Source: a virus
Virus record (IMG/VR): IMGVR_UViG_3300020213_000031
DNA length: 64,000 nucleotides
Direction: 5' to 3' (one strand)
In this document: positions 999 to 49,554 of the stretch, piece after piece
How positions within the stretch are numbered: the first letter of the stretch is position 1
Layout of the letters: each line of letters opens with the position of its first letter
Position numbers and translations under genes: made by a program
The notes under the pieces: model-generated
Databases searched by the model: none
The model's input: only the letters and a program-made list of their open reading frames with translations
What the model was told of the DNA's origin: nothing

Positions 999-1077
999 CG
1001 CGTTAACTAATGGTGAATGTTGACATCACCTTTTTCCTTTGCTACACCTTATAAACCAACTTTTGAAGGAGATGAGC

Positions 1078-5605: not shown

Positions 5606-5614
5606 GGAGATAAA

Positions 5615-8762: not shown

Positions 8763-9191
8763 TTGATGAGCAACACAACCCAAAAAATTCTCCGCTGTCT
8801 TATGATGACCCAATCAAACAACGACCACGAAGCGCTCGTCGCCGTTCGAAAGGCTAATCAATTATTAGCCGTTTGCAACTTGAATTGGGAGCAATATTTG
8901 GGTGTAGCCAAACGCATGGATGTCGATGAGCAGGAGACTCGCGATCAGCCCGATCCGGAATCAGAAAATCCTGACAACTATGAGAAGCCGACAAGAATGA
9001 GTCGCTATGACCGAACCGCCGAGATGCTCGCCCAGGTGCGCAACCACCTCGAACGCACAGGCTCACCAGCAATCGATTTTATCGCCAGCCTTGAACGTGG
9101 GCTGGCAAATTTCGGATCGCTCACCCCAGGTCAAATGGCAGCTCTTAAAAAGTTTCACAAAAACGCTACAAGGGCGCGAGCACCCTTTTGA
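8763..9191 (+). CDS. hypothetical protein
   Basis: ORF only. Confidence 0.35.
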   Translation: MMSNTTQKILRCLMMTQSNNDHEALVAVRKANQLLAVCNLNWEQYLGVAKRMDVDEQETRDQPDPESENPDNYEKPTRMSRYDRTAEMLAQVRNHLERTGSPAIDFIASLERGLANFGSLTPGQMAALKKFHKNATRARAPF

Positions 9192-9470
9192 CTTCTGCCG
9201 CCAATAGTGCAGAATAAATCAAGGAGAATGAGAATGAAATTCCAAGGTACGGAAATTTTTGATATTCAGCGAACCGCCTACGACAACCTTCGAGGCTTTT
9301 TTGGTCTCCCAGCAAAAACGGTAAGCACGATCGCCATAGCGCTCGATGCAGCCGTCATTTTTGGAATGCTGAAAGCGAGAGAGCGCGATGACGACGTAAG
9401 GGTAAGCACTGAAGTGTTGATTGCGTTGCTCGCCGACAAAACGAACAGATTGAAAAACCTGTGAGACACA

Positions 9471-10079
9471 ATGAGGAAAACACCAAAAGAAATCCGTAAA
9501 ACTTTAAAAGAGCATTATCACAAGAAAAACGGCTGCGAAGGAAAAAGAAAGTATCTTGATGAAAGCTCAGCACAGTCTCGCGCCGCTTACGACAAGCAAC
9601 GGTTCAAAGGCCACAAGCGCAAAGGCGAAGAGGCCCACAGGCCGTATCGTTGCGTTTTCTGCACCTACTGGCATATAGGCACGCCGACGAACCCAAATTA
9701 CCGTCAGGACTTCAAAGAAGTCGTGGAAAAGGCCCAGCTCATTCACGCTGGAGTCCCGATCTTTCGCCCTGAGCGCAATCTCCCTCGTCCAGACCTCTCC
9801 AGCCTCTATCTAAAAGGTTTACTAAAGAAGGAAAATTTGATTCATGGAGAATATTATATCGGATATTGCAAGTTCGCAGTCGTCGCTCGTTGGCACAGCG
9901 AAAATGGGCTATTCTACTATCAGACAGACGGGCGCGAGAATTCGCGCCCACACCCAGCGGACGATATCGGCGGAGATATATTCACCCCCGTCGACAAAAT
10001 CCAGCCAACACGAAATCAGCGCGTATATGAAGCGTTCGGGGAAGCCCATCCGATTGAAAGGCCCAGATTTAATCCCTGA
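9471..10079 (+). CDS. hypothetical protein with CxxC...H motif (PYRCVFCTYWH)
   Basis: ORF; possible zinc-binding motif. Confidence 0.4.
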   Translation: MRKTPKEIRKTLKEHYHKKNGCEGKRKYLDESSAQSRAAYDKQRFKGHKRKGEEAHRPYRCVFCTYWHIGTPTNPNYRQDFKEVVEKAQLIHAGVPIFRPERNLPRPDLSSLYLKGLLKKENLIHGEYYIGYCKFAVVARWHSENGLFYYQTDGRENSRPHPADDIGGDIFTPVDKIQPTRNQRVYEAFGEAHPIERPRFNP

Positions 10080-10346
10080 TGTGAGGGATGGTGGCGGTTT
10101 CACGTTCAAGTACATCGCGAACAAGCTTGAGGGGGAAGATGCGCGGGAGCAAAAGCTGGAAAAGAAAGATGATGAAGATCCGCTGCAAGTATTGTTCGAA
10201 AGCTCTCCGCTCGGGTGGATACGGGGCGAAGAACATTAAGGGGCGCAGTTGGTGTAACGGCTGCGACGGGAACTTGGTTCGAAATTCTTTGGATGGAACA
10301 GGAAAGAGGAAAGAGCGCGAGAAAGGTAAAAAGGAATGTAAAGAGG

Positions 10347-11063
10347 CTAAATAGGAAATCCAGCTTTCCTGAGTTTCTTTCTTAAATCTTCAGGCGCCTT
10401 AATTTTTTCAACAGCTTTCCAGATGTCTTTTAGAATCATTCGACGCATTTTTGTGTCAGACTTCCAGATTTTCAAATTTGTTCTTACCTGCGCCACATAG
10501 TCGGCAAAAACATCTCCAGAAATATCTTCGATTGGTGTGTGATTTATCCCAGCTACTCGATACCGAAGTTCTGCCAAGAGCTGCTCAAGGTGTGGTTTGT
10601 GTTCGATCATCGTGTTTGGATATTTCTTATCCCAACGGCTCCGACCTCTAGCATATTTTTGTAGAAGTTGAATGACGTGAACAAACTCATGATCGTACAT
10701 ACCGCGAAGCGCGTTAAAATATCTTCGAGCGTCTGGGGCATTCGTCGGCGTGGGGAGCGGTCTTATCGTGAGAGAAATAAATTCTTTATGTAGGTTTGTT
10801 TCTTTGTGGTGGAGGACTTGACCATCGAAACCAGGAGGCAAATCCTCGTAGTCGAAAACGAGTCCAATCTCTCGTGGAAATGTCAACCAAAGCTCTTCCA
10901 TTCTTTTTCTTGGTCCAGGCTTTTCGAATTGCGCTAATTTTCGCACTTTCGCTGGAACGCTGTGAGCAAATAGATCGTAGTAAAAATTAAATCCAACGTC
11001 GTAAATTTTTCTTATGGTTTTGTTCTTGAGAACATTTCTAAGGACTGATGGATTTTTTCTCAT
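10347..11063 (-). CDS. putative Zn-dependent metallopeptidase
   Basis: HExxH motif (DHEFVHVIQ). Confidence 0.5.
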   Translation of the reverse strand: MRKNPSVLRNVLKNKTIRKIYDVGFNFYYDLFAHSVPAKVRKLAQFEKPGPRKRMEELWLTFPREIGLVFDYEDLPPGFDGQVLHHKETNLHKEFISLTIRPLPTPTNAPDARRYFNALRGMYDHEFVHVIQLLQKYARGRSRWDKKYPNTMIEHKPHLEQLLAELRYRVAGINHTPIEDISGDVFADYVAQVRTNLKIWKSDTKMRRMILKDIWKAVEKIKAPEDLRKKLRKAGFPI

Positions 11064-11470
11064 CTTTACCTTTCGCAGCAGCGCTTATAGCTGTAAGCAG
11101 ACCAATAACAGCCACTCCCCAGAACAGGGTTCGTTTGCTAGACGGATTTTTAGCTGACTGAGCTTTCGATTCGCGCCTAGCCCAATCGACGCCAGCCGTA
11201 CCACCCCAAAGCAACCAGGCGATATATCCAGCCGTAGGGCCGCCGTCACGCGCCTTGCGGTAAGGGCTTGAGTGTTGGCGATGTCGATTGAAGGATGACA
11301 TACGCCGAATCGTTGACAGAGAAAGGTTTCGCCCGCCCGCGATATCTCTCGCACGAGCAACGCCGACACTCGTGCCGCCACGACGCCATTCACGGCGAAG
11401 CCGTAGTCCTAGTTTTGCGTTCTGTCTGGCCTTGATTGGGGCTTTCATTTGAATTCCATCTTTACGAAGA

Positions 11471-11764
11471 TTAACGCCGTTTAGCTAAGCGAGCTTCAGC
11501 TTTAATTTCTTTTCTGAACCTTTTTCCGTCAGCGGTGAGAGCGTAATACAACGCCTTGGAGCCAGGGCTTATATAGAGTTGTAGAAATTCATACTCTTCC
11601 AAAAATTGAAGATACTTACGCAGCTTCGTCATGTTCGTGTATCTAATCCCCATAGCGCTGGCTATGTTATATATCTGCGACGAACGCTTCAGCGCGAGGG
11701 AGTTAAGAACGTCGAGCAAAAAGAAAAGATTGATAGGGTAATTGTAAACTAAATGCCTTTTCAT
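11471..11764 (-). CDS. small winged-helix-like putative transcriptional regulator
   Basis: Size and helix pattern only; weak. Confidence 0.3.
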   Translation of the reverse strand: MKRHLVYNYPINLFFLLDVLNSLALKRSSQIYNIASAMGIRYTNMTKLRKYLQFLEEYEFLQLYISPGSKALYYALTADGKRFRKEIKAEARLAKRR

Positions 11765-12186
11765 TCAACATCCATGACCTTCATAAGGTCCACGCTGTCA
11801 CGCAATTCTGGGTGAGCCATTGCAGCTTTACGCATTTTGTTTACGCGAAGGAGCGCAGCGCGACCAGCCTTGACTTCTTCATAGTCGCAAGTTTTCGGGG
11901 AGCGAGCACAGAGTTTGTCGATGTTGGCTTGCATGTCAGCGAACCAGGCACCGTCAACGCAAATCATGCCGATGCGTTTTTCATCCCAGGCAGTCTTGTC
12001 GAGAAGAACGGGAGGACACTTAATAAGGTCGCACAGGGTGCGAACCCCAGTGGCGCCGAAGCGTCCTTTATCTCCCCAGGCGGTGGTATCTTTTACTTTT
12101 ATGGAGTGGGCGCCGCAGGCGGAGAGGATGCTAAGCGTTGACAACACCAGGGCGATTTTTAACCAAATCTTGTAAACGTTTTGCAT
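11761..12186 (-). CDS. lipoprotein, hypothetical
   Basis: Signal peptide + lipobox LSAC. Confidence 0.45.
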   Translation of the reverse strand: MQNVYKIWLKIALVLSTLSILSACGAHSIKVKDTTAWGDKGRFGATGVRTLCDLIKCPPVLLDKTAWDEKRIGMICVDGAWFADMQANIDKLCARSPKTCDYEEVKAGRAALLRVNKMRKAAMAHPELRDSVDLMKVMDVE

Positions 12187-12487
12187 ATTCTTTTTCCTCT
12201 TCAGGCGTGAGCGCAGGACGCGATTGAGCTTCGCGCAGCATTGTAATTTCGGGAGCGTAATGATCTTTGGCGGCTTGTGAGAGCTGATCGATCAGCGCAA
12301 CTTTGATTTCGATAACTCCATGATCGATAAGCCAGCCCACTCCCCAATCGATGACTTTTTTAATGCCATCGCCGAGGAGTGGAATTTTAAGAACGATCCC
12401 AACCAATGGAAACTGGATCGACACCGCAGCGAGCAGCGCCGGAATAATTCCACCAATAAAAATCGTTCTTAAAATTTGGCTAATCAT
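12131..12487 (-). CDS. membrane protein, hypothetical
   Basis: Multiple hydrophobic helices. Confidence 0.4.
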   Translation of the reverse strand: MISQILRTIFIGGIIPALLAAVSIQFPLVGIVLKIPLLGDGIKKVIDWGVGWLIDHGVIEIKVALIDQLSQAAKDHYAPEITMLREAQSRPALTPEEEKEYAKRLQDLVKNRPGVVNA

Positions 12488-13030
12488 TTAAGCAGCAGGA
12501 GTTGCAGGCGTGGATGGGGTTTTGATATCGCGAAAAGCGGTATACACAATCATGGCTCCGCCCGAGGTGAATAGACCACTGATGATCGCTTCAACAATGC
12601 TGCCACCTTTCGACCAGGCTTCGGCCACATATCCACCACAGGTAACGATAGCGATGACAGCTCTGAGATAATTTCCAGAAATCTTTTCCAAGATTCCGTA
12701 AATTTCCTTGGAGCGAAGAATTTGGAATACTGGAACGAGAACCATGGACGTACTTGCTTTTGTCTGAATCGCAGCCCAAAGCGCCATGATTGCAGGAACC
12801 AAAGCAACGTCGGCTCCGTCCGCAGCTAGAGCGTAGAGGGGGAAGAGAGACATAAGGAGAACAGGCACGAGGTAACGAGCCGCAGGGAGACTGAGCTTTT
12901 TGGTAAACATTAGGGAGTCCTTTCCAATTGATGGTTTCTGACTTTCCAATTTTACACGCAATCTCTTTATTATGCCAACCCTAGAGGCTCCACACGCTCT
13001 GGAACGGGGGCGGCGGGCCGTTTCATCCAT
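12488..13030 (-). CDS. polytopic membrane protein, hypothetical
   Basis: 4-5 hydrophobic helices. Confidence 0.45.
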   Translation of the reverse strand: MDETARRPRSRACGASRVGIIKRLRVKLESQKPSIGKDSLMFTKKLSLPAARYLVPVLLMSLFPLYALAADGADVALVPAIMALWAAIQTKASTSMVLVPVFQILRSKEIYGILEKISGNYLRAVIAIVTCGGYVAEAWSKGGSIVEAIISGLFTSGGAMIVYTAFRDIKTPSTPATPAA

Positions 13031-13273
13031 ATCTTCTCAACGAGGGCGATTTTTGGCTGGCCGGTCACTAAATCCTTACCGCCGAACTCCTGGTAGGACG
13101 TGACTGAGAAAGGCTCGTAGCCGGAATCAAGCAAATCTTGGCATTCTTTGGCGCCTTCAGCGCCGCCTTGGCGAAGAACGGCGCAGGCGAAATCCCAGCC
13201 TTTGATCATGACGGGTTGTTTTGGGAACTGGATTACATTGTCCATTTTTTACCTTTCACAAATGGTGTACACT

Positions 13274-13630
13274 ATGAAAATGAATAGCATACGAGTAGAA
13301 CTTTGCAAGCAAGCAGACGACGAGCATCGAGCATCAATCAGGCAGTATGCACACACCTATCACCACGACAATGTGATTTGCTTTGCTCGCGCAGCAACCA
13401 ATCTCACCGACAATCAATTTTGGGCGATCATGGCTCATGAAATTGGACATTTGATTGCTGGATATGAAGGCTCGGAAAGCGACGCCAATAGGGCCGCGAA
13501 TCAGTTCTTTGGAATAAAGATCCGCTATCGCGACAGCAAGAACGGCGAGCGGCTCGAGACCATAACCGACAAAGAGGCAAGGAAAGTTAGTCGGATACTT
13601 AGCAAGATGGATTTTGTAAAAAGGCTATAA
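13274..13630 (+). CDS. ImmA/IrrE-family metallopeptidase domain protein
   Basis: HExxH motif MAHEIGHLIAGYEGSE; start taken at internal Met MKMNSIRV to avoid overlap. Confidence 0.5.
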   Translation: MKMNSIRVELCKQADDEHRASIRQYAHTYHHDNVICFARAATNLTDNQFWAIMAHEIGHLIAGYEGSESDANRAANQFFGIKIRYRDSKNGERLETITDKEARKVSRILSKMDFVKRL

Positions 13631-14069
13631 GCCGATCCATCGCGTGTTTTGGTTTCCCTTTCATGAGGGGAATCTCTGGAGTGGGCGGAACATACTCAAC
13701 GTAAGGAGTTGGTCTCAGGATGAGGCCGTATTCGATCCACAGAATTTCGCGGCGAACTTGTTTGGCGGCTTTTTGAACTTTACGTTCTAACCCCTTTGCC
13801 CACAGCATCATCGTTCCCGCTTGTGGAGAAGACCTCGGCGATCGTTTTCTGGTGCTCTTTAATTTTGCCACGCTCTTCCTCCAGTAAATCGGCCACAGCC
13901 CTCAAGGCGCGATGGTGCTCATGAGTACCGTCGCTCGCTCGCGAATGGTCTCGAAGGAACTCGATCATACTATCGAGGGAAATGTAGACTTGCCCATTTT
14001 GACCAGGCTTCGCAAAGAATTTTAGATCAACGCTCATGGGAATGGAGATTACACCATTCTCCGGATGAG

Positions 14070-14741
14070 TCAAATGTTTTTGATTCTGATGAGGGTGGCC
14101 GTGGCGTAAGCCCACTGGCGAGGACCAAAATCTTTTTCTTTCATTTTGAATTTGCGCTGAGTCGATCGAACGGCTCGGCGTTTTTTCATCTCATCGGCTT
14201 TGGTTTTAACGTAGCGGTCGATACCAAGCCCTGGCTTCTTTGGGTTCTTTTTTCGCTTCTTGGGATTGGCGGCCACGAAATCATTCATTACGATTTCTTT
14301 AGTGTCGGCGCCGCTCGGCAAGAGGATGTCATCAGTATAATCATCGGTGGCATCATCGGTCGCAGCGGAAGTGGCCGGATAAACTTTCAGCGAAATTCTA
14401 TCGTCATCAGCTTTTCCATAAAGCCTGTGAAGGTATTTAATTTCGTCAGCGCTGAATTTTCGGTAGGGTTTCTTGAACCTGTATTCAGCGATCCTTACAG
14501 CGTCGTCAAAGAGGAAATCTTTATTGGCTGGATTGCCCTCTTCTTCAATGCCGAACATTTCGTCCCAGCATTTCGGGCAAGTTTGGGAAATGAACATTTC
14601 CCGCAATTCCGGCGACAGTTTAGGAAATGCGTCTTGAACGTGCTTTCCGCTTTCCCATTCTTTCAGTCCTTTTTCGGGAACAGATACAGCAATGGGTTTT
14701 TTGCAATAGTGGCAGGGAATTTTAAGTTTCAAGATTTTCAT
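14070..14741 (-). CDS. zinc-ribbon protein with basic C-terminal tail, hypothetical
   Basis: CHYCKK...CPKCWDE plus K/R-rich C-terminus. Confidence 0.4.
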   Translation of the reverse strand: MKILKLKIPCHYCKKPIAVSVPEKGLKEWESGKHVQDAFPKLSPELREMFISQTCPKCWDEMFGIEEEGNPANKDFLFDDAVRIAEYRFKKPYRKFSADEIKYLHRLYGKADDDRISLKVYPATSAATDDATDDYTDDILLPSGADTKEIVMNDFVAANPKKRKKNPKKPGLGIDRYVKTKADEMKKRRAVRSTQRKFKMKEKDFGPRQWAYATATLIRIKNI

Positions 14742-14975
14742 CAGTTTAACCGATCCTTGTCCTTCACATCTTGGGCTTCTCTGCTTATGATGTGTTCAGC
14801 TAGAAGATCATTTTGTTTCTCTTCCAGGTAATTCGCTACCGCTTTCACGGCTGCGTTATAAATTTCGTCGTCATCCTTCAGAGTCCTCGTTGACCGCAGG
14901 AGCGTTATCAAGCTCTGAAGCTCAATATACAGCTTTTCGTCATCAGGGAAAACAAGGATAGTAAGTTCCGACACA

Positions 14976-15203
14976 CTACCTCCGTCGAACAAACCTCTCA
15001 ACGATGAATGCGGCGAATACACTGCCGGTTACCATGACAGCGATCTGCGCCCAAGGCGTTCTGATCGTGCTGGTTTTAGTCTCCAAGACTTCTACTCGTT
15101 TGGCGAGTTCTTTGTGCTCGTGAGGGCAGACGGGACAATTTGCAGGATCTTCACCAAATCCGCGATTGGCGTGCTCCATCATGTGGTGGGATTTGATATC
15201 CAT
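14976..15203 (-). CDS. small protein with C-terminal TM helix (lysis-accessory candidate)
   Basis: CxxC + C-terminal hydrophobic helix; adjacent to M15 peptidase. Confidence 0.3.
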   Translation of the reverse strand: MDIKSHHMMEHANRGFGEDPANCPVCPHEHKELAKRVEVLETKTSTIRTPWAQIAVMVTGSVFAAFIVERFVRRR

Positions 15204-15460
15204 TACTTACCTCGCTCAAGCGACTGAATGCGACCTTCGTGACTGTAAATTACTTTCGTTTGCTCGTCTTGCTTACTTTTGATCGACTCATTGTCTTTCG
15301 AAGTGACGGCGATTCGCTCAACAACGGAACCCATTTGAATGTTTAGCTGGGAAATATTCTTGTTCAAGTCTTGCAGCGTGTAGCCGATATAACTCGAGAT
15401 CACCGTCAGGGCGCCAAAGAATATAATTGGAACAACTTTTTCCCAAGCTAAAGATTTCAT
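15203..15460 (-). CDS. small N-terminal TM protein (holin/spanin-like candidate)
   Basis: N-terminal TM helix + coiled coil; immediately downstream of M15 peptidase. Confidence 0.35.
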   Translation of the reverse strand: MKSLAWEKVVPIIFFGALTVISSYIGYTLQDLNKNISQLNIQMGSVVERIAVTSKDNESIKSKQDEQTKVIYSHEGRIQSLERGK

Positions 15461-16077
15461 GCGGCTTTCCTTTTTGTCACAGCGATGAACGCAATCCCAC
15501 CAAGAACTGCGGCTGTCAATACGATCGGAATTATGGGGAGATCGAAAGAAGCTGAAGGCATGGAGGGGAAATCGTAGCCGCTTGAATCGTTTGAGGGAGA
15601 GGAGCCGATTTTTGCCCGAATTTCTGCTGGCGTGTACGAGTAGTACGATCCGCCGTCTTTATATTTGAGAGCGCCAGCCATTTGCTGACCAAGAGAGTTG
15701 ACGTAGGGGGAGGAGATATGGACGACGCCAATATCTGTTTCGTTGATGATTTCTCCACACGAGTAGCGAAGGCTTGAGGCGGCCAACTTCCAAAAGAAAG
15801 CTTCTGGACTCATCGTGAGTGGTCTCACATCGATGGCTTTCCCCTGCATGTGGAGAGAGGTGCCGGAGCTGTCGGAAAGGGCGGAATTTAACGCAGGTGA
15901 GCGGTATCCGGAGGTGATGTCGAACGGACCAATCGCCTCATATATAAGGTCGCCAATTACGGCCATGGTTTGAAGATTTGCTTGAGAGTTTTGGTCGGGA
16001 GTGTTGCTGATACCCATGGAAGCCGCCGTTTGGCTGGCGGTCAACTGCTCAAGTGTGAAGTATTTCGACAACTGCAT
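15457..16077 (-). CDS. peptidase M15 family (D-Ala-D-Ala carboxypeptidase/L-Ala-D-Glu peptidase-like) cell-wall hydrolase with C-terminal TM anchor
   Basis: SGYRSPALN...SLHMQGKAIDV zinc-binding signature; C-terminal hydrophobic helix. Confidence 0.65.
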   Translation of the reverse strand: MQLSKYFTLEQLTASQTAASMGISNTPDQNSQANLQTMAVIGDLIYEAIGPFDITSGYRSPALNSALSDSSGTSLHMQGKAIDVRPLTMSPEAFFWKLAASSLRYSCGEIINETDIGVVHISSPYVNSLGQQMAGALKYKDGGSYYSYTPAEIRAKIGSSPSNDSSGYDFPSMPSASFDLPIIPIVLTAAVLGGIAFIAVTKRKAA

Positions 16078-16117
16078 CAGTATATCTTAAAGGAAACGGT
16101 TCCTTATGGCGAGTCGA

Positions 16118-16146
16118 CGCTTGACATTCCGGGCTATGGTGATTAA
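16118..16146 (+). promoter_or_regulatory. sigma70-like promoter (TTGACA-17-TAAATA) upstream of XRE gene
   Basis: Sequence match in divergent intergenic region. Confidence 0.35.
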
Positions 16147-16200
16147 ATACCGCTATAACCCTGAATCAATTCATCGGGTAAGCAAAATTTAAGGAAAAAA

Positions 16201-16509
16201 ATGGAACATTGGAACCAAAAAGTGGCCGCAAATCGCGGGAAATCGTGGAGAAATGCGCTCCTTTCTGGACGGCTTGAGGCCGCTCGAAACCCGAGCGCCA
16301 TTCGCCTTGCCAGGATCAAGAAATCGCTCTCACAAGCTGAGGTGGCTAAATCAATCAGCCTCACCTACGCGACGTATGGTGCCATCGAATCTGGGCGCAG
16401 GCCCGTGAAGGAAGATCGAGCCAAAAAGATTTCTGATATTTTGGGCTTGAATTTCAAACGAGCTTTCACCATTATGGGTGAAGGAAAATATGTTGCTCGA
16501 AAGGAATAA
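16201..16509 (+). CDS. XRE-family helix-turn-helix transcriptional regulator
   Basis: LSQAEVAKSISLTYATYGAIESGRRPV HTH pattern. Confidence 0.6.
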   Translation: MEHWNQKVAANRGKSWRNALLSGRLEAARNPSAIRLARIKKSLSQAEVAKSISLTYATYGAIESGRRPVKEDRAKKISDILGLNFKRAFTIMGEGKYVARKE

Positions 16510-16987
16510 CGTGGACGCTCAAGAAATGATGATGACGACTGAGGACAGGTTTGAACTCAATTGCAAAATCGTCAAAAAGAAAATGAGTTACCTCGATCAC
16601 CAATCTCGCGGGAAAAAAGGCAACGAGACAGCAGATGTAATTCTGCTCATTCCTGAAATTACCACCGAGTCGTCTTGCTTTTATACGGCATGGCTTCCCG
16701 ATGAAGCCGACGTTCGAGTGACCGAGTGGGGCGACAAGTTGATCGCGCACTCCGAAATTGGAATGCGTGCCGGATACCCGATCGGTGGATTGATTCGTGG
16801 AGCGCTTTATCGCGCCAACTCCCTCTACCCTTCCCCACACATTTTCATCATGAGTAAAAAAGCCGAAGACCTTTTGCAAAATCATGTTGGAAAGAAAATT
16901 CGTATTACGGTTTTAGGCGAACAGGAATTCGATGAAGCCTACGAGGCCAAGGCGGAAACCAAATCACCCTATTCGGAAATGAGCTAA
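16478..16987 (+). CDS. hypothetical protein
   Basis: ORF only. Confidence 0.4.
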   Translation: MKENMLLERNNVDAQEMMMTTEDRFELNCKIVKKKMSYLDHQSRGKKGNETADVILLIPEITTESSCFYTAWLPDEADVRVTEWGDKLIAHSEIGMRAGYPIGGLIRGALYRANSLYPSPHIFIMSKKAEDLLQNHVGKKIRITVLGEQEFDEAYEAKAETKSPYSEMS

Positions 16988-17065
16988 AATAAGCTTGACA
17001 GTTGTTTTCGGATGTCCCCATACTGCTACTACTCGCGTTGCCTCACCTCAGCGCTCACTCCGGAA

Positions 17066-17103
17066 GGGGTCACATTCTCGCCGATGTGGCCCCTTCTTTT
17101 TTT
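17066..17103 (+). terminator. rho-independent terminator (10-bp GC stem + T-run)
   Basis: GGGGTCACAT-tctcgccg-ATGTGGCCCC followed by TTCTTTTTTT. Confidence 0.55.
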
Positions 17104-17150
17104 GGTCGCCTGATCGCTGCGGGGCGGCGGTCGATTTCTTAAAAATCTTT

Positions 17151-17179
17151 TTGACAACCCTTTTTGACTTCGCTATACC
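17151..17179 (+). promoter_or_regulatory. sigma70-like promoter TTGACA-17-TATACC
   Basis: Consensus -35 with 17-nt spacer, about 85 nt upstream of ATG 17263. Confidence 0.4.
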
Positions 17180-17262
17180 CTATGGTGATTGATGAATACG
17201 AATTGGCGTGGCCGAGACGTGTTTCTCAAACCAACAGAAAAATAGTCACTATAGGAGTGAAA

Positions 17263-17757
17263 ATGAGTAACAAAACCGCCCCCGCAAGTAATGCAGCCGC
17301 ACCCGATCGTAAGCCTTACGATCTGATGAAGAACGCCAAGGCTGCCGGGAAAGCAAAACTGGTAGAAGCAACCCCTCTCAATGGATACAACGGCGATATC
17401 ATCTCGCTGACGGATGCCATGAAGGTTGGCGATTCGATCGAGTTCACGCTCGCAGCGATCGAAACTCGCGGCACTGACGACGACGGTAAAGACCGCGTTG
17501 TTTATGTCGGCAAAGACGCAAACGGTGAAGAGTTTGGAATTTGGGGCCGTGGTGGTCTCAATCTGATGAACCGTGTTCCTCACGGCGCATTCGTTCGTGT
17601 GACCTACTCTGCGTTCGACAAGACCGCAAAGCGTCCTACCCCTCAGCACCAGTTCAAGATCGAACTCGAAGAAGGTGTTCGCCTCCTTCCCGTAGATCAA
17701 GGTTTCATTCCTCCGAGCAAGCGTCATGGCGCTGCCGGGGCTGAAGCTCGCAACTAA
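17263..17757 (+). CDS. hypothetical protein (stand-alone promoter/terminator; possible DNA-binding/SSB candidate)
   Basis: GGAG RBS; own promoter and upstream terminator; function speculative. Confidence 0.4.
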   Translation: MSNKTAPASNAAAPDRKPYDLMKNAKAAGKAKLVEATPLNGYNGDIISLTDAMKVGDSIEFTLAAIETRGTDDDGKDRVVYVGKDANGEEFGIWGRGGLNLMNRVPHGAFVRVTYSAFDKTAKRPTPQHQFKIELEEGVRLLPVDQGFIPPSKRHGAAGAEARN

Positions 17758-18155: not shown

Positions 18156-18953
18156 GTGAAATTTTTTAAATTGTTTTTGTTTTTAGGACTTGTTCCGTTT
18201 CTAACCGCTTGTGGCGTTGAGCAGATCGACGAAGGCTATCGCGGCGTCTATCAGCGCTGGGGAGCTGTAGAGGGCGATCCTCTTTTGCCTGGGATATATT
18301 TCTACAACCCAATCTCTGGCAACATTATGGAACTCCCCGTCCTTGAGCAAAAACTCAACGGCACGACGGAAAGCTTCACGGTGGACAACCAGAAAGCCCA
18401 CGTCACATACGTCTTGACGTTTCGCCCTCGCCCGGAAGTTCTTGGGAAGCTGTACGCCTCTGCCGGTAAAGGCTGGGCCGATCAACTCATTCCTCAAGTT
18501 GTCCTCGGGGCGATGAAAGACTCCATCGGACAGATTGAAGCCAATGACTTGGTTCGTAAACGTGAACAAGTCACGATGAACGCGCAAAAGAAAATCGGTG
18601 AAGCCCTGGAGCCTCGTGGCGTGTTGGTTACTCGATTGGATTTCGTCAATCTGAACTTTGAGCCTGAATACGAGAAAGCCGTAGAGGCAAAAGTTACGGC
18701 GATCCAAAACGCGAATGCTGAAAAGAATCGCACCGTTCAAATCAGGGAACAAGCAGCCCAAACGGTATTGACCGCAGAGGCCGCAGCTCGCGCCATGCAA
18801 ATCCAGACGGCTGCCCTTCAGCAGTCTGCGTCCCTGGTCGAGTATGAGCGCGTGAAGAAGTGGGATGGCAAGTTGCCCGATATGTTGATCATGGGCGGTG
18901 GTTCAGCCACGCCGATTATCGACATGAGCGGAGCTTTGGGTCGTAAGAAGTAA
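18156..18953 (+). CDS. SPFH/band-7 (prohibitin/HflC-like) domain lipoprotein
   Basis: Lipobox LTAC; SPFH-like core with long C-terminal coiled coil (AEAAARAMQIQTAALQQSA). Confidence 0.65.
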   Translation: MKFFKLFLFLGLVPFLTACGVEQIDEGYRGVYQRWGAVEGDPLLPGIYFYNPISGNIMELPVLEQKLNGTTESFTVDNQKAHVTYVLTFRPRPEVLGKLYASAGKGWADQLIPQVVLGAMKDSIGQIEANDLVRKREQVTMNAQKKIGEALEPRGVLVTRLDFVNLNFEPEYEKAVEAKVTAIQNANAEKNRTVQIREQAAQTVLTAEAAARAMQIQTAALQQSASLVEYERVKKWDGKLPDMLIMGGGSATPIIDMSGALGRKK

Positions 18954-19723
18954 TTTAACCGATCGGGGCGGCGGACCTTGACCCGCTGCCTCGGTCTACT
19001 TTTGAGGTATTTATGGCGAACTGGAAATTTCTTTTGATTGCGTGGGTTCTCGCTACAGCTACAGGCTTTTGTATTGGCAGTGTCTTTGAAAACTGGCGCT
19101 TGATGCGTAGAGGCCCGATCCCCGTTTCGCAAACAGCCCTGTTTGAAATCAACATGGCTTGCTCTGGCAATTACCGCGACTTGGTTGTGAACCGCCGATA
19201 CGTTTACGCCAATTGCGTTGGCGGCAAGCCCGCGACGGTTCAAAACTACGAAATGAAGTAGGCCGTGGACAAGGGAACACCAAAGACTCTTTCAGGCGCG
19301 ATCGGGAATGGGCTGGAACATTACACAGCCGTTCCCGAAGAGCGCTTTGGTCAAGAGGTGGAAGCTATCCGCCGCCATGTGAAAGACTTTCTCGCGCAAA
19401 AGTTTCAAGCGGCGAAATGTCTCGCACACAGAGGAAAATTTAACACCGAGGCCGACGTGCAGCTTCTCTTCGATGCCTGCACGAGCGTTAATCCGCCTCC
19501 AGTTTATAAGGAATAAAATGTTAGCCAAAACTGATCGCGAAATTCGACTTGAGGAAAAGCTTTCAAAGTCTCTGGAGATTATCGATTGCTTTGCAATGAT
19601 CACCCAAAAATCTTTGGGGATCATGGAACTCAAATATGCCCGCTCGTTGAAGCCTGAAATCGATAAAACGGTTTCCGCTGTGGAAGTGTTCACCATCGAA
19701 AGTAAAAAGATCCTGGGGGAAAC

Positions 19724-20458
19724 GTGAACTTTATTGCAGATGTAGCGGGGAGATACGAGCCGGTTAAGAAGCTTCTGGCAGCGATGCCTCAAGAACGTAC
19801 CTTGTTCCTTGGCGACCTTATCGATCGCGGGCCTCAGTCTCGAGAGGTTGTGGAATTGGTTCGTTCAAAGTACGAGTGCCTGCTCGGCAACCACGAGCAC
19901 CTGTTTATTTCCTTCGTCCGCAATGATGGGAAATATGGAAACACCTGGATGATGAATGGTGGCGGCGCCACGATGGATTCCTACTGCAACAGCAGCAAAG
20001 TCGATGCAATCGTAGCCGGGGTCATGAACGAGCACACCGATTGGATGGACAAGCTGCCACTCTTCGTCGAGACGGATCACGTTTTCGCGAGCCATGCCCC
20101 GTGGTCGGCTCACGAAGATTTTGAGCATGTACAGAAAATTTGGCTTCCTCCGATGGCGCTCTACCCTCACGAGAGATGCAATCCATCGTCCTTGATTTGG
20201 AATCGTCGCGATCCATGCCTACGAAGGTTCAAAGACGCTGACGGGTTGAGCGCCGCACCGTTTGACAAGGTGAAGCTTCAGGTATTCGGGCACAACAGCG
20301 AGCTTAAGCCTCAGCATTTTAATGAAGAGGACGACGATGGAGTTACCATACCGTTTGCGATGGGGATCGATTGTTCGAGAGCGAAAGTTGTGACAGGACT
20401 TCACGTTGACGACGAATTCGGATTGCACAAAGTTACCATTTACCAAGAATCTTACTAG
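19724..20458 (+). CDS. PPP-family Ser/Thr protein phosphatase (calcineurin-like metallophosphoesterase)
   Basis: GDLIDRG and GNHE motifs. Confidence 0.75.
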   Translation: MNFIADVAGRYEPVKKLLAAMPQERTLFLGDLIDRGPQSREVVELVRSKYECLLGNHEHLFISFVRNDGKYGNTWMMNGGGATMDSYCNSSKVDAIVAGVMNEHTDWMDKLPLFVETDHVFASHAPWSAHEDFEHVQKIWLPPMALYPHERCNPSSLIWNRRDPCLRRFKDADGLSAAPFDKVKLQVFGHNSELKPQHFNEEDDDGVTIPFAMGIDCSRAKVVTGLHVDDEFGLHKVTIYQESY

Positions 20459-22428
20459 GAGAGAAAATGATCACCACAAGAAGCGCCACAGGCAAACAAA
20501 GACGATCCTGCCGTCAGCGAAACGATAATCGTCCAATGGGTTGGCAGCCGAGCATCATGGCGAAATGGAAGTACAAGCGTTTGGAAAAAGACGTGGCGGC
20601 TGGGATTTTGCCAAAGTCTTGCCTGAACGTGACGATGAGGATTTTCGGTAAGGGTAAAAAACAGTGAGCAATCCAAGCCACGAGGTTTGGTATAAGGACC
20701 GCGATTTTCCAGAAATTAAACGTGGCGTTTATAATTCATCAGCCGATATTTTGGCGGTCGTTCCCGATGAGAAGCAGCTTCTCAATCTCGTTAACGAGCA
20801 CAACGCTGTGGTGCTTTCATGGGCTGAAGCATCTTATTCTATATCGAAAGCTATCGTCGCGTTCGAGCGGATTGCTAAAGATCAGTGGATATTAAAGAAG
20901 ACAGACTTAGTAATGATCCAAGAAATCGCCCGCGAAGCCCTCGCACGGCTCAAGGGCGACTCCTAATGGGTAAAAAGGTATGTCCATGCGATTGCTGCTC
21001 AAAGCGCCGCGATCGAGCGAAGAAGGTTTGGGAAGCCAAGATGCAGCGGCTCTTAGAGCGGGCTGGTGCGGTTGGGCTTGTCGTTTCGACTTCCAAGAAA
21101 GACAGTAAATGAGAAAGCTAATGACCAAATGTAAAAAATGCGGAACCGTCCTCGTTGGCGAGCTTCAACGCATCCAACATTTTTGCTCAAAACCAAAAAT
21201 TGACGAATGCGATAAAGAGGTTCACGTTTTCTTGGGTAAGCGAAAAACTTGTCAGTGTGGAAGGACGAGGATCGATGACTGACGCTAAAAAACAAGCCTG
21301 GGATTATTTCGCCAAGGGAAATAGATATCTATCATCTGAGGACTATTACAAAGAGAATCCAGAAAAATCTGACGTTTATCGAGCCTACTTGGCTGGTCAT
21401 GAATCCACGATGGAAAGAATTCGTGCGCTAGAGGAAGCGCTCAAGTTTTACGCCGACAAGCAACACATCGTCGAAGTAAACACCGAGCAAGAGTACAGCT
21501 TGAGGGTTGAAGATGGAATGAAAGCTCGAACTGTTTTGGGCGTGCCGTCATGAGCGAATTGCAGAAGAGAGAACCTGGACGATACGGCCCACGCATTTTC
21601 ACAAATGCTAACTTTGTGCAGCTCTCACGTCAAACGGGAACGTGGTCACTCAAGAGGAATGGCGACAATGGGTTCGAATACGTTTCAGAGAGCGAATACA
21701 GTCTGGCTCGGTCGCGGGCGAGTTTTAGGGAGAGGAATCTTGAAACTAAAAATTCCAAGCTAAAGAGCTTGATTCAAGAGGCGCATAGAGTATTCTCTAA
21801 CGCACCAGATGGCTGGACGAATACGCATAGCGATTGGCTGATTCACGATTTGGCGAAAATTGAAGCTGAGCACCGAGTGGAGGAAGAATGAAACTTCGAT
21901 GGTACGTCGTTGAAACGGATTACGGCCCCTCATACATGAAGCCAGCATGGCCCAAGTCGATGAGCCGTGGTAAACCTCATCAGCAATTTCACCATACCCA
22001 GCCTCGCCTTCAGTATAAAGACAAAGGCAAGTCGATGTGGACGGACGTTCCAACCGTTGTGAAAAAAGTAAAGAGCGACAGGGGTGAAGGAATATGAGAA
22101 CCGACAAAAGAATCGCTCGATTGAATTTATGGAGGCGTCCAAATGATGGAAGAATCAAAAGAGTTCAAAGAAAAGGTCAGCTCAAATACCTGGCACAAAA
22201 ATTTCGATGAGGTCGTTGTATTCATCAAGCAAGCGACGAATGAGGAGCCATACGAATCTGACGGCAATACATTGAAACCCGGATGTGTTGATTGGAGATG
22301 GGCGAGGAACATGGAATGTAAATACATTTCTTTAAGAATCGATATGCGAGACGGTGGATTTATTTTGTGTGACAAATCTGGGAATCGGATCAGCCTTGAT
22401 CGATTGAAGTGGCAATATAGGAGCAAAG

Positions 22429-22881
22429 ATGAGGTTTGATCTAGTAAGCAATGAATTGTACCGAGGCTCTCACCCTGAAAGCATGAGCGACCTCTACACG
22501 CTCAAGATGCAAAAAGGAATTCTCCGAATCGTCAGCTTGGAAACATTCTGGCATAAACTTTTCGGTTGGAAGAATGAAGCAATCGCCTGGGAGCACGTTC
22601 ACCATGGACTCTTTCTAAACTTCCCGCTTTCCAATATTTTCCCACCCTCTCAGCAGCAGACGTTGGACATTTTACATATTTTGCAAGAGCCGTCCAGATT
22701 GCCCACTTTCATTCACTGCTATGCAGGGTGCGACCGCACTGGATGGATTTGCGCTTCCTGGCGCGTGCTCAATGATGGATGGACTCCCGCCAAGGCATGG
22801 CAAGAAGCCCTTGATATGGGAATGCACTCTCGGTATAGCTTTTGGTGGAAATATTTCTTTATGAAAATGTGGGAGAATTAA
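22429..22881 (+). CDS. protein tyrosine/dual-specificity phosphatase
   Basis: HCYAGCDRTG = HCx5R(S/T) P-loop signature. Confidence 0.65.
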   Translation: MRFDLVSNELYRGSHPESMSDLYTLKMQKGILRIVSLETFWHKLFGWKNEAIAWEHVHHGLFLNFPLSNIFPPSQQQTLDILHILQEPSRLPTFIHCYAGCDRTGWICASWRVLNDGWTPAKAWQEALDMGMHSRYSFWWKYFFMKMWEN

Positions 22882-23709
22882 ATGGGTGACGCTAACGGAA
22901 ACAAATATGAGAAAATAGACTTACCGAAGGAACCGGCTAAAGCCCCTGTTCCCACAGCACCAGTTAAACCTGGTGAGAAGCCGGAAGATCCGAGCGTGAG
23001 AGTTCTCGGCATCGACGTAGCGAAATACCAGGACAAGCTAGATCCCACAGAGTGGGCGAAGCTTTACGCGAAGGGCTACCGCTTTGTGTTCGCCAAGGCC
23101 ACGGATGGGAAGGCTGGATTGGATTCGTATTACAGCTACCATCGCAAGAACGCGAAAGCAGCGGGGTTCCTGGTCGGGGCCTATCATTTCCTGCGTTACG
23201 GATACACGGCTGAGGAGCAAGCATCTCACCATTTCAAAACAGCCGGAAGGGTATCAGGAGAACTCCCGAGCGTCCTTGACGTTGAGTGGGATCGTTACAC
23301 CCTCGACCAAAAGTACGGCAGCGACAAGCGCATGGACAAATGGGCCGAGAATCACGCCAAGAAGTACGTTGAAACCTTGATGCTACTCAACGGCGGAAAG
23401 AAACCAATCATATATACCAATGCGTACTTTTGGCCGGAGAAGTGTTCCTTCCCGGAATTCTGGAGCCAATTTCTCGTGTGGGTTCCCTCTTACTCCGACT
23501 CCCTCAACCCAGGAGGCAAGCACGTACTGGCTGACCTATCCCCTGCGGAAATCGCAAAAGCTGGCGCTGGTGTGAAAATTCCTAGTGGATGGAAGCAATG
23601 GAACTTTTGGCAAGACGACGACGATTTGGCGATTGGCGATGTGAAGGCGATTGACACCAACGTGTTTCGCGGATCGCTCGAAGACCTGCGAAAGATGGCA
23701 AATGCCTAA
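22882..23709 (+). CDS. GH25-family lysozyme (muramidase), endolysin candidate
   Basis: GIDVAKYQ...FAKATDGKAGLDSYY...GAYHF pattern. Confidence 0.7.
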   Translation: MGDANGNKYEKIDLPKEPAKAPVPTAPVKPGEKPEDPSVRVLGIDVAKYQDKLDPTEWAKLYAKGYRFVFAKATDGKAGLDSYYSYHRKNAKAAGFLVGAYHFLRYGYTAEEQASHHFKTAGRVSGELPSVLDVEWDRYTLDQKYGSDKRMDKWAENHAKKYVETLMLLNGGKKPIIYTNAYFWPEKCSFPEFWSQFLVWVPSYSDSLNPGGKHVLADLSPAEIAKAGAGVKIPSGWKQWNFWQDDDDLAIGDVKAIDTNVFRGSLEDLRKMANA

Positions 23710-24268
23710 AACTCACATGATGACCAATACAAGGGTTCATCGAATTTGGAGGGCGATGCTTTCCCGCTGTCGTAATCCCAAAACCATCAACTACAAACAC
23801 TACGGAGGTAGGGGCATCCGCGTCTGCAAGCGGTGGGAGAAATTCGAGAACTTCTTCGCCGACATGGGGCACCCGCCAGAGAGCCACAGTCTAGATAGAA
23901 TAAATTCAAACGGAAACTATGAGGCCAGAAATTGTCGGCGGTCAAGTCAGATTGAACAGGTGCGGAATACCAATAAAACCATTCGACTTACAATTAACGG
24001 AGCAACAAAGCCGATGGCAGAGTGGTGCCAAGAGCGCGGGATCAGCTACGGCGCAGCCATTAGGAGGCTCCGGAAAGGCTTGTCACATAGTGCGGTACTT
24101 TCTCCATCTCGATTGCCCATGTCAAAGACCAAGAAGCGGCTGATAAGCGACGAACAAATGAAAGAAGTTAGGACGAGGCGTGCGGCGGGTGAAACGCTTG
24201 CGAGCATCGGCGCATCTTTCAACGTGAAGAAGGATCACATTTGGGCGCGACTAAAGGACTCCCCATGA
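23702..24268 (+). CDS. HNH-like homing endonuclease / AP2-type DNA-binding protein
   Basis: YKHYGGRGIRVCKRW..FENFFADMG...LDRINSNGNY...NCR pattern common to phage HNH endonucleases. Confidence 0.5.
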   Translation: MPKTHMMTNTRVHRIWRAMLSRCRNPKTINYKHYGGRGIRVCKRWEKFENFFADMGHPPESHSLDRINSNGNYEARNCRRSSQIEQVRNTNKTIRLTINGATKPMAEWCQERGISYGAAIRRLRKGLSHSAVLSPSRLPMSKTKKRLISDEQMKEVRTRRAAGETLASIGASFNVKKDHIWARLKDSP

Positions 24269-25079
24269 CCGAAGACAAACTACTCTATCATTTCCAAAAG
24301 GGCGGCGAGAAATGATCTGGAATTCCATTAAGTCCATTTTCTGGTGTGGGGTTTTTCACAAGTTCAAACCTTGCATGGATTTGGGCTATCCGGACATTGC
24401 TCCAACGAAAAGTGATATTGGGCAAGATTGCTTGTGCGCAGTTTGCGGGACCACATACGAGGTAACAGGATGAACGTTTCCATCTGCAAATCCTGCCACC
24501 AACAAATCGACGCGGGCGACAAGCACGAGTGCCCGCTTGCCGCTCGCAACGATGACAAGTTTGCAACTCTTCGCTTGGGTGTACTGGGTGTTGAAAAATC
24601 CGCTCAGCGAAGATCAAGAAGATATGGCAAAATCTATCAATAATCTTTTTGCGCTTCTCGGAACGCGGGAAGCGGAAATAAAGAAGCTCAAAGAAAAACT
24701 GGCGAGGGTTGGCACAACCACTTGCTCGCATGGAACGCCGACGAGCGAAAGGTGTGAGATGCTCATGATGGCTTGTTTAGTTCTTGTTGCTGTGGGGCTG
24801 TGGTTCATTCGCGAAGAGCGGAGGATGAAATGAGCATGATGGGTGAAGCCATAGCGTCTGAAAATTTTGACATAATGAAGTTTAGGCTAGAGCGAGCAGA
24901 AGCGGTCATCGCTGAAATGGAGCGAGCCGCGCTTTCAAGAATCGTGTGGCTTAAAGACTGTAGAGACGCGGGCTATTCGAATATGGAAGGCGCCGACAGT
25001 AAAGAGTTTATCTATTGGGAAAAGTGGGCTGAAAATTGCGCTGCCGAGGTTCAAAAGGAAAATAAATCACTCGAGATTC

Positions 25080-25583
25080 TTGCTGAGTACAGGAGAGGTA
25101 AATGATTTCATTCGCCCCATTGACAAACCTTTTCGAGGTGCCATAATGGATGTATGCAATATTGAATCAAATTTAATTTCATCGCAATTCCCGGAGGCAA
25201 GGCTTCCTGGAAACCTCCCTAGTCGAATGGTGCCCCGAAAGATCGGAAAGCTCAACCATTCACCACTAGAGGAAAATATGAAAAGATTCAAAACCCTGTT
25301 CGACATGAAACTCGAACTCAAAGCTCTCGCCGCTCAAATCAAAAAAGACAAAGAACCTCCACGCTCTCAGCATACTCGCGCCATGTTTGAGTTTAGACAT
25401 TTACACGTCGCAAGATGCCTTCTTAAAGGTCGCACGATGCTGGAGATCGAGGGGTCGGACACAAACCGTAAAAGTAAGCGCGACGAAAAATATCTGGCAA
25501 AGCTTTTGGAAAAGTGGACGCCGCTCCACGAGGCCGAGCAAATTGCCTGGAAGGCCGCTAATCTTGAAATGGTGACGGCATGA
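25080..25583 (+). CDS. hypothetical protein
   Basis: ORF only. Confidence 0.35.
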   Translation: MLSTGEVNDFIRPIDKPFRGAIMDVCNIESNLISSQFPEARLPGNLPSRMVPRKIGKLNHSPLEENMKRFKTLFDMKLELKALAAQIKKDKEPPRSQHTRAMFEFRHLHVARCLLKGRTMLEIEGSDTNRKSKRDEKYLAKLLEKWTPLHEAEQIAWKAANLEMVTA

Positions 25584-25876
25584 CGACCGAGCGGTATTCT
25601 GGATACAAATTGTTCGTCATTGTCGACGCCTTCCTTGACCGCTCCCAGCAGGCCGTCCAAGCTCTTCACGCAGCGGTAAAGTTCTGCCTTGACCACCCGG
25701 ACGTGGCAAAAAATAAATGGGGAAACCAAAACGTTGTAATCAAGAAAGCAAAAGATTTTGAACGCTGGGCGTCAGAATCCGATGCCATCTTTGTCGAACC
25801 CTATTGGGATAATAAACAGACCGCCTGTGTCGCCTTTCGCCCGGAAGGTTATGCGGAGGAACTGCCCCTTATTTAA
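25580..25876 (+). CDS. hypothetical protein
   Basis: ATGA overlap with upstream ORF. Confidence 0.35.
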   Translation: MTTERYSGYKLFVIVDAFLDRSQQAVQALHAAVKFCLDHPDVAKNKWGNQNVVIKKAKDFERWASESDAIFVEPYWDNKQTACVAFRPEGYAEELPLI

Positions 25877-25968: not shown

Positions 25969-26045
25969 GGCCCAGTAGCTCAGATGGTCAGAGCGGCTGT
26001 TTTCAACTCAGTGCGTCGCGGATTCGAATTCCGCCTGGGCCTCCA
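25969..26045 (+). tRNA. tRNA with anticodon UCA (opal/UGA-reading; tRNA-Sup or Trp/other-UCA), CCA encoded
   Basis: Perfect 7-bp acceptor GGCCCAG/CTGGGCC, D-arm GCTC-AGATGGTCA-GAGC, anticodon loop TTTCAAC (U33, A37), T-arm GCGGA-TTCGAAT-TCCGC, discriminator U, CCA. Confidence 0.8.
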
Positions 26046-49551: not shown

Positions 49552-49554
49552 ATT

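Follow-up and report, generated by a model that had tools for sequence, protein, structure and literature searches.

Two linked phosphatase genes of an uncultured phage as probable, separately acting accessory phosphohydrolases

The close placement of two phosphatase genes of different superfamilies in one phage genome raises the question of whether they work as a pair on host phosphoproteins or as separate accessory enzymes. Both genes lie in a window of 64,000 nucleotides (the whole stretch of DNA that was analyzed) from an uncultured phage, whose genes include a protein-primed PolB. The possibility that the window is host chromosome was rejected because its annotated genes are all phage-like. 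A preliminary description reported a metallophosphoesterase (ORF A) and a cysteine phosphatase (ORF B), and both were present exactly as described, with the signatures GDLIDRG/GNHE and HCYAGCDRTG 2 kb apart and small ORFs alone between them (Table 1). Its superfamily assignments, a PPP-type metallophosphoesterase and a CX5R cysteine phosphatase, were borne out by profile searches, in which both proteins pass the Pfam thresholds. Its labels of Ser/Thr and Tyr/dual-specificity protein phosphatases are not established, because ORF A has Ala8 in place of the motif-I histidine and the general-acid loop of ORF B is free of carboxylates. With a probability of roughly 0.6, the two are genuine, separately acting accessory phosphohydrolase genes in an operon that runs from HTH regulators to packaging genes.

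Table 1. Features of the phosphatase locus, with positions in the window
Feature	Position	Strand	Description
Terminator-like hairpin	18961..18996	+	Strong, 14 pairs; directly after SPFH lipoprotein gene; consensus scan
ORF A	19724..20458	+	244 aa; lambda NinI-type (PPP-like) metallophosphoesterase, D6-V-A8 clade
Six small co-directional ORFs	20467..22439	+	Tightly packed or overlapping; ~66, 100, 92, 113, 85 and 98 aa
ORF B	22429..22881	+	150 aa; dual-specificity-fold cysteine phosphatase; AGGAG ribosome-binding site upstream
GH25 muramidase (endolysin-like)	22882..23709	+	275 aa

ORF A is related to lambda phosphatase (NinI, ORF221; 1g5b) in both sequence and fold. It scores 43 bits against PF00149 (threshold 21.5) and matches phrog_246 ("NinI-like") at 1e-30, and its top sequence match among solved proteins is 1g5b (4e-7), which is also the top Foldseek match of its AF2 model (pLDDT 92.5). 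Identity to lambda NinI is approximately 20–27%, and ORF A carries an additional insert at 130–185. Like NinI and phrog_246, ORF A conserves GDxxDRG (GDLIDRG, 30–36), GNHE (55–58), two later histidines (H124 and GH190, the latter followed by N191) and an aspartate (D216). GDLIDRG and GNHE are invariant in homolog alignments A1 and A4, and H124 and H190, which correspond to the later metal-ligand histidines H139 and H186 of lambda phosphatase, are invariant across homologs.

Unlike lambda NinI, ORF A has D-V-A for D-x-H, GHN for GHT and IDxS for IDTG. Its motif I reads I-A-D6-V-A8-G, in which the aspartate is kept and the metal-ligand histidine is replaced by alanine. The D[VI]AG state occurs in 22 of 29 homologs and co-varies with GHN and IDxS, while the remaining homologs have DxHG, GHT and IDTG. 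The D-x-A clade is metagenome-only; this state was absent from the cultured-phage homologs checked, and 16-3 p047 and CcrRogue gp267 have DxHG. A wrong start codon was rejected as the cause of the histidine loss, given an in-frame stop upstream and the fact that every clade member begins 5 residues ahead of the aspartate. The sister-phage copies retain ADVAG and GHNS despite 44–50% identity, and the variant motif is therefore under constraint. It can be inferred from these motif states that ORF A is still a metal-dependent phosphoesterase, a NinI-type binuclear enzyme with a remodelled first metal site and two other active-site motifs that changed along with it, and it can be conjectured that N191 is a compensating metal ligand. 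The clade would then be a NinI-like group in which the first metal site is systematically remodelled. Lambda phosphatase is promiscuous in its substrates. To our knowledge, no biological role has been assigned to NinI and phage phosphatases in general are poorly understood; a search of the NinI literature returned no functional study.

ORF B has the alpha/beta fold of the dual-specificity phosphatases (DSPs). It lies above the Pfam thresholds with PTP-NADK, Tc-R-P and PTP-SAK, all DSP families, as top models, and its confident AlphaFold model is structurally closest to archaeal or atypical DSPs. The N-terminus reads MRFDLVSNELYRG, and no signal peptide, TM segment or hydrophobic N-terminal segment was found in the protein. 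The P-loop, H96-C97-Y-A-G-C-D102-R103-T104-G105, follows the HCX5R(S/T) pattern. Across 146 relatives, C97, G100 and R103 never vary, D102 occurs in 143 and E50 in 117. The preliminary description had made its reading dependent on the catalytic residues. On careful alignment, Cys97 and Arg103 of ORF B are in place, but its general-acid Asp and the motif-I His of ORF A are missing, which in part undercuts that reading on its own terms. The general-acid loop (65–74, FPLSNIFPPS) contains neither Asp nor Glu, and in alignments to SsoPTP and 25xa it is Asn69 that takes the place of their loop Asp. The corresponding column of the 146 relatives holds N in 41, P in 26, G in 19, A in 17 and D in 13 (Asp ~9%).

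The closest solved relative of ORF B by profile is TpbA of Pseudomonas aeruginosa (2m3v, 4r0s), a protein DUSP (6.6e-18). TpbA is periplasmic and has a signal peptide, whereas ORF B is predicted to be cytoplasmic and showed no TpbA-like Sec signal peptide or periplasmic location. The TpbA loop carries an Asp (D105) close to the position that aligns, while the loop of ORF B lacks a carboxylate, and the TpbA P-loop (HCKHGNNRTG) lacks the Asp of HCYAGCDRTG. In archaeal mini-PTPs (SsoPTP 2i6i, Tk-PTP 5z5b) and atypical DSPs (VHZ/DUSP23, KAP), an Asp of the P-x-P-D loop stands where ORF B has Asn69, and the last P-loop residues are GRTG, against DRTG in ORF B. Siw14/PFA-DSPs, the Mce1/BVP RNA triphosphatases, PTPMT1, MptpB and myotubularins match ORF B less strongly by profile than TpbA does and differ in P-loop residues. 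None of the substrate-specific insertions of general-acid-independent or lipid-directed cysteine phosphatases was recognized in ORF B.

In the proposed mechanism, the P-loop and Arg103 would bind the phosphate of the substrate and the Cys97 thiolate would attack it, forming a phosphocysteine intermediate. ORF B lacks the usual loop Asp that protonates Tyr or Ser leaving groups, and P-loop Asp102 is conserved in the family instead; E38, E50 or D102 as the alternative acid is a conjecture. Judged from these residues, the substrate may, at nearly even odds, have a good leaving group or be a non-protein compound (phosphoanhydride, nucleotide or lipid phosphate). This is somewhat more likely than a phosphoprotein, which would be a tentative candidate, since some bona fide protein phosphatases such as Cdc25 and the myotubularins lack a loop acid or have a P-loop Asp. 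An inactive or binding role of ORF B would be unlikely. Should the substrates prove to be non-protein (envelope lipids, RNA ends or nucleotide signals), these enzymes would form a class new among the accessory or counter-defence functions of phages; ordinary protein phosphatases would be a matter of routine annotation.

The arrangement of the locus is consistent with accessory genes carried in an operon. Both phosphatase genes are flanked by HTH regulators on one side and by packaging and structural genes on the other, as the lambda nin region lies between regulators and lysis/packaging genes. This site is compatible with a lambda-nin-like delayed-early position, and the early timing given in the preliminary description would be a deduction from it. 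The six intervening ORFs have no TM segments and no family assignments except 22143–22439, which matches phrog_9782 (unknown function), and only 20467–20667 is conserved in sister phages. The stop codon of ORF B abuts the start of the GH25 gene (TAA-ATG, the ATG one base after the stop codon), and the GGGAG ribosome-binding site of GH25 lies inside the 3' end of ORF B, indicating that GH25 is translationally coupled to ORF B. In the consensus scan, no strong hairpin lies between the one upstream of ORF A and the phosphatase block, and the next comparable one lies at ~25768. From this spacing, a single transcription unit could comprise ORF A, ORF B, GH25 and an HNH gene.

Among the alternatives to two separate accessory phosphohydrolases, the one that survives best, though unlikely, is that one or both enzymes target RNA ends or nucleotides. 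In that case ORF A would be an ApaH- or Pnkp-like esterase (for Np4N, 2',3'-cyclic phosphates or 3'-phosphates), and ORF B would cleave phosphoanhydrides in the manner of RNA 5'-triphosphatases or PFA-DSP/Siw14 and thereby modulate RNA 5' ends, alarmones or signals derived from NTPs. ApaH is the best NCBIfam match of ORF A (4.2e-10) and Pnkp is also listed, but all these matches fall far under their cut-offs; 4j6o and ApaH also appear among the ORF A matches. The top Pfam models of ORF B are nucleotide-context DSP families, the BFVD entry that it matches best is "SIW14-like" and comes from an uncultured Caudovirales phage, and MazG, YAcAr, Rv2179c-like and Thy1 genes occur near the locus in related contigs. 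RNA triphosphatases and PFA-DSPs typically lack the general acid, as ORF B does. However, the profile matches of ORF B to Mce1 (2e-9), BVP (5e-7) and Siw14 (4e-9) are weaker than that to TpbA (7e-18 when rounded), and its P-loop is unlike the HCTHGxNRTG or HCKRGKHRTG of the cysteine-type RNA 5'-triphosphatases and PFA-DSP/Siw14.

The preliminary description raised the possibility that the two act together, as a Ser/Thr and a Tyr/dual-specificity protein phosphatase, to reverse host kinase signaling; the targets could be, for example, developmental kinases, BY-kinases or abortive infection of the Stk2 type. Both superfamilies do include protein phosphatases, lambda phosphatase and TpbA are the nearest proteins of solved structure, and the operon lies downstream of early-type regulators. 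Against this stand the histidine missing from ORF A and the loop acid missing from ORF B. PADLOC returned zero hits, and no kinase domain was found in 46 further ORFs of the window (1–17757, 24773–25876 and 47932–63534), approximately half of the larger ORFs having been profile-searched. A literature search on phage DSPs, phage tyrosine phosphatases and phosphatases that counter kinase defences gave nothing relevant, including no report of a phage cysteine phosphatase acting against a kinase defence.

The claim that the two genes act together fares no better outside one lineage. The pair is shared by the window phage and its syntenic sisters L002 and L015; in sister phage L001 it is absent, and a PAP2 phosphatase gene occupies that region, although not in the exactly homologous slot. 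Eight further contexts of ORF B relatives, on other phage backbones, gave no Metallophos match, and none of the 110 neighbor and 93 control ORFs (203 in total) from the IMG/VR loci of ORF B relatives matched PF00149. Co-occurrence across unrelated genomes, as a two-gene system would show, was thus not found. The proximity of ORF A and ORF B thus probably reflects common descent in a single phage lineage and not a conserved two-gene system. A functional pair is accordingly improbable, and so is the kinase-erasing reading, which these data weaken for both genes. Co-function would fit with the retention of both genes in three of the four sister phages.

The adjacent muramidase gene raises the alternative that ORF B is a lysis or envelope phosphatase. 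It would dephosphorylate a lipid-linked wall precursor or carrier (C55-P/PP, lipid II) or a membrane phospholipid precursor and weaken wall synthesis before lysis, with the PAP2 gene of the sister phage as an analogue. Adjacency to cell-wall hydrolases recurs around other ORF B relatives, but it is statistically insecure: lysins make up 4 of 110 IMG/VR neighbor ORFs against 0 of 93 controls (Fisher one-sided p = 0.084, not significant). Accessory genes often gather beside lysis cassettes for positional reasons, and an adjacent lysin is absent in L002, L015, L017, L058, L060 and L023. ORF B has neither a membrane anchor nor a signal peptide, and the imperfect slot of the L001 PAP2 gene also counts against the analogy. 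A lysis role for ORF B is thus quite improbable, and it is more doubtful still that the acid-less family in general acts with peptidoglycan hydrolases on a lipid-linked carrier, precursor or other envelope phospho-substrate, as a PAP2 analogue; if true, phage lysis would gain an enzymatic component of a new kind. A mobile cassette shared by the GH25 gene of the window and the hydrolase gene of L016 was rejected at the sequence level because BLASTP found no similarity between the two proteins.

That one or both proteins are catalytically dead and bind or sequester a phospho-ligand or host protein is very doubtful. In its favor, one canonical catalytic residue is missing from each protein, pseudo-enzymes could arise when a metal ligand or general acid is lost, and general-acid-deficient PTPs serve as substrate traps. 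However, the other catalytic residues (C97, R103, G100 and D102 of ORF B and D31, N56, H57, H124 and H190 of ORF A) are all strictly conserved across hundreds of diverged relatives, as would not be expected of a pure binding protein.

The reading as separate accessory genes also bears on how common such enzymes are. The preliminary description considered a CX5R phosphatase unusual in phages, which is true of cultured-phage resources and untrue of metagenomic viral contigs. ORF B has no PHROG match, and against 50,697 phage records (INPHARED) zero matches were obtained with ORF B by tblastn, with a 646-aa conserved late protein by tblastn or with window positions 17–27 kb by megablast. Peptide-pattern scans of IMG/VR with ORF A, ORF B or alignment A3 yielded no confirmed relatives, and a scan of genome contigs gave only eight distant MAG matches and no host clue. 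The IMG/VR loci of relatives were recovered with a degenerate DNA pattern, which places ORF B relatives on metagenomic viral contigs. By sequence, ORF B is part of a large uncharacterized family of roughly 3,040 representatives, found here in phage-type contexts and missing from cultured-phage resources. Small cysteine phosphatases that lack the usual general acid thus appear to be common in uncultured phages, though cultured-phage databases suggest their absence.

ORF A and ORF B of the window phage are genuine members of two phosphatase superfamilies, each in a non-canonical form. The preliminary description had reported two ORFs with the motifs of a PPP-type and a CX5R-type phosphatase and small ORFs between them, and this observation was confirmed, while its interpretation was partly supported. 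ORF A passes PF00149 at 43 bits (cut-off 21.5), and ORF B exceeds the gathering scores of PF22741, PF22785, PF13350, and PF00102. ORF A is also matched by phrog_246, "NinI-like serine-threonine phosphatase," at 1e-30. AlphaFold models built on homolog alignments reached pLDDT values of 92.5 (ORF A) and 95.0 (ORF B), and lambda phosphatase (1g5b) is the top structural match of the ORF A model. Because of the profile scores, the confident models, and the structural match, the motifs of both ORFs are not there by chance. Superfamily membership therefore stood, but the designation "protein phosphatase" is unproven, both variants being non-canonical.

Features of the window and of contigs carrying relatives (L-numbers; L001 is a syntenic sister phage)
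Feature	Position	Strand	Details
Protein-primed type family B DNA polymerase	2263-4644	+	PF03175, 5e-29; phrog_1907
Peptidase_M15_3 gene	15457-16077	-	candidate for the conserved lysin of the lineage
HTH_3 regulator	block from 16201	+	first in the order listed here
Small ORFs after HTH_3 regulator		+	with three strong terminator-like hairpins (17062, 17775, 18961)
SPFH/Band-7 lipoprotein	18156-18953	+	lipobox LTAC; phrog_200
ORF A	19724-20458	+	GTG start, 244 aa; GDLIDRG and GNHE
Six short co-directional ORFs	between ORF A and ORF B	+	tightly packed; preceded by ORF A
ORF B	22429-22881	+	150 aa; HCYAGCDRTG
GH25 muramidase	directly 3' of ORF B	+	followed by HNH endonuclease
HNH endonuclease	23651-24268	+	phrog_3377, 5e-47; directly 3' of GH25 gene
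tRNA	25969-26045	+	downstream of HNH gene; Rfam 60.5 bits; anticodon TCA, would read UGA; ARAGORN label tRNA-SeC
Conserved 646-aa protein	after tRNA	+	followed by structural genes
TnpB/Cas12f-like protein	51832-52878	-	348 aa; OrfB_IS605 and Cas12f1-like TNB domain
tmRNA match	53927-54370	-	RF00023, 67 bits, model positions 1-374, full-length; among phage-like genes
ORF B relative, Rv2525c-like hydrolase	L016:10001-11300
ORF B relative, GH108 with PG_binding_3	L021:3524-4509		pair set among recombination genes
ORF B relative, SLT-type hydrolase	L168:9111-10174
ORF B relatives, GH24 or GH108	L018:4132-6173; L059:4531-6471		about 0.9 kb apart
PAP2-superfamily phosphatase	L001:9566-10069		167 aa; same variable region, downstream of ORF A ortholog

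Among solved proteins, lambda phosphatase is the nearest to ORF A by sequence (4e-7). Lambda phosphatase and PP1 have G-D-x-H-G at motif I, whereas the aligned motif of ORF A is I-A-D6-V-A8-G, with Ala in place of His. The motif-I His of the PPP family helps hold the first metal. A wrong start codon was rejected as the source of the absent His, since an in-frame stop lies upstream and every close homolog begins five residues ahead of the Asp. D-[VI]-A-G was found in 22 of the 29 homologs with the motif visible; these also carry GHN and ID-x-S, whereas the D-x-H-G homologs carry GHT and IDTG. The change marks out a clade. The remaining ligand motifs (D31, D34-R35, N56-H57, H124, H190, and D216) are invariant among the homologs. 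The top homologs from cultured phages, p047 of Rhizobium phage 16-3 and gp267 of Caulobacter phage CcrRogue, keep the canonical His. NCBIfam matches were all far below threshold, led by ApaH, with PrpA/PrpB and Pnkp next. ORF A is therefore a NinI-type metallophosphoesterase with a putatively remodelled first metal site, and its substrate class is not readable from the sequence.

The preliminary description would have been refuted by missing catalytic residues, and for ORF B half of this refutation applies: the nucleophile Cys97 is present, but the general acid Asp, also named there, is absent. Cys97, Gly100, and Arg103 are invariant in the ORF B family (146 relatives), His96, Thr104, and Gly105 are nearly invariant, and the P-loop Asp102 is conserved in 143/146. 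In DSPs, the general-acid Asp is borne by a loop that in ORF B (residues 65-74, FPLSNIFPPS) has no carboxylate. In profile alignments, Asn69 is the counterpart of the Asp in SsoPTP (PIPDGGVPS) and 25xa (LPLPDFSAPT), while D105 of TpbA aligns one column off. Across the 146 relatives, the residue in the Asn69 column is N in 41, P in 26, G in 19, A in 17, and D in 13. TpbA is the nearest solved relative by profile (6.6e-18), followed by 25xa (a DSP-family protein), SsoPTP, PTP-like phytase, and PTPMT1, and then by VHZ, PFA-DSP1, Mce1, Siw14, and BVP. No signal peptide or TM segment was found in ORF B.

The suggestion that the two phosphatases cooperate found no support, as they occur together only in syntenic sister phages. 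Three syntenic relatives share HTH regulators, the small ORF at 20467-20667, the 646-aa protein, and other genes with the window phage. L002 encodes both phosphatases, with identities of 50% (ORF A) and 49% (ORF B) and a spacing of about 1.1 kb; in L015, which also has both, the spacing is about 0.65 kb. L001 has an ORF A ortholog (61%) but lacks ORF B. Its PAP2 phosphatase has intact motifs (KxxxxxxRP, PSGH, and R...H...D), contains hydrophobic segments that resemble signal sequences, and weakly matches the undecaprenyl-diphosphatase SepP. Outside this lineage, ORF B relatives are found in a DNA-polymerase-A phage (L016), in other backbones (L017 and L021), in YqaJ/RecT phages (L018 and L059), between SSB and polymerase-A genes (L058), and inside a packaging/structural module (L060 and L023); no metallophosphoesterase lies within 6-10 kb of them. 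Near IMG/VR family members, PF00149 was found in 0/110 ORFs at ≤1 kb and 0/93 ORFs at 2.5-7 kb. Among the contexts inspected, the pair is confined to one lineage, and ORF B relatives elsewhere belong to other backbones; therefore, the proximity of ORF A and ORF B reflects shared ancestry and gives no independent evidence of co-function. The proposed action against host kinase-based defence was likewise unsupported: 46 further window ORFs (from 1-17757, 24773-25876, and 47932-63534) contained no kinase domain, and PADLOC returned no defence-system match in the window.

The gene block from 16201 through the structural genes lies entirely on the + strand. An early or delayed-early position of the two phosphatase genes is plausible because the layout resembles the nin, lysis, and packaging order of lambda. 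The SPFH lipoprotein gene, with a strong terminator-like hairpin directly 3' (18961-18996), resembles a moron-type membrane gene and precedes the phosphatase block; it has 76% identity in L015 and is absent from L001 and L002. The GH25 gene has its ribosome-binding site within ORF B, and its ATG directly abuts the ORF B stop (TAA-ATG). The GH25 and HNH genes look like insertions, as both are missing from this position in L001, L002, and L015.

Beyond this GH25, three contexts (L016, L021, and L168) have an ORF B relative immediately next to a peptidoglycan hydrolase, with a different hydrolase family each time. ORF B relatives thus recur beside or within 1 kb of hydrolases from various families. 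ORF B could be read as a phosphatase linked to lysis or to the envelope, the L001 PAP2 protein being a possible analogue. However, wall hydrolases made up 4/110 ORFs near IMG/VR relatives versus 0/93 controls (p = 0.084, not significant), and accessory genes tend to gather beside lysis cassettes anyway for positional reasons. The recurring adjacency is suggestive, not statistically secured, and this link has a low probability.

ORF B, the CX5R member of the two non-canonical phosphatases, had been called unusual for a phage, which held for cultured-phage resources but not for metagenomes. A PHROG search gave nothing at E ≤ 0.01, and tblastn against 50,697 INPHARED records gave no match. BFVD matches are mostly giant-virus, pox, and baculovirus DSPs, the top one being a "SIW14-like" protein of an uncultured Caudovirales phage. 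In metagenomes the family is large: 3,040 cluster representatives pass E ≤ 1e-3, and 304 of them remain at E ≤ 1e-10. Nearly all come from unnamed contigs, and several of these measure 37-58 kb. IMG/VR was scanned with a degenerate HCxxGxDRTG pattern, and the family HMM confirmed 78 of the first 120 matches. Phage-type genes were present in 10/10 inspected contexts of relatives in other contigs.

Other features were observed in the window. The tRNA, which overlaps the called start (25984) of the conserved 646-aa ORF, may be an opal suppressor, although the long ORFs of the window read through normally under the standard code. The large late proteins had no Pfam, PHROG, or INPHARED matches. ARAGORN made no tmRNA call on the tmRNA-like region, which may represent a tmRNA of the phage or what is left of an ssrA attachment site. 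The TnpB/Cas12f-like gene lies just upstream of it. The family B DNA polymerase suggests terminal-protein-primed replication in this lineage, and a similar gene is present in the relative L003.
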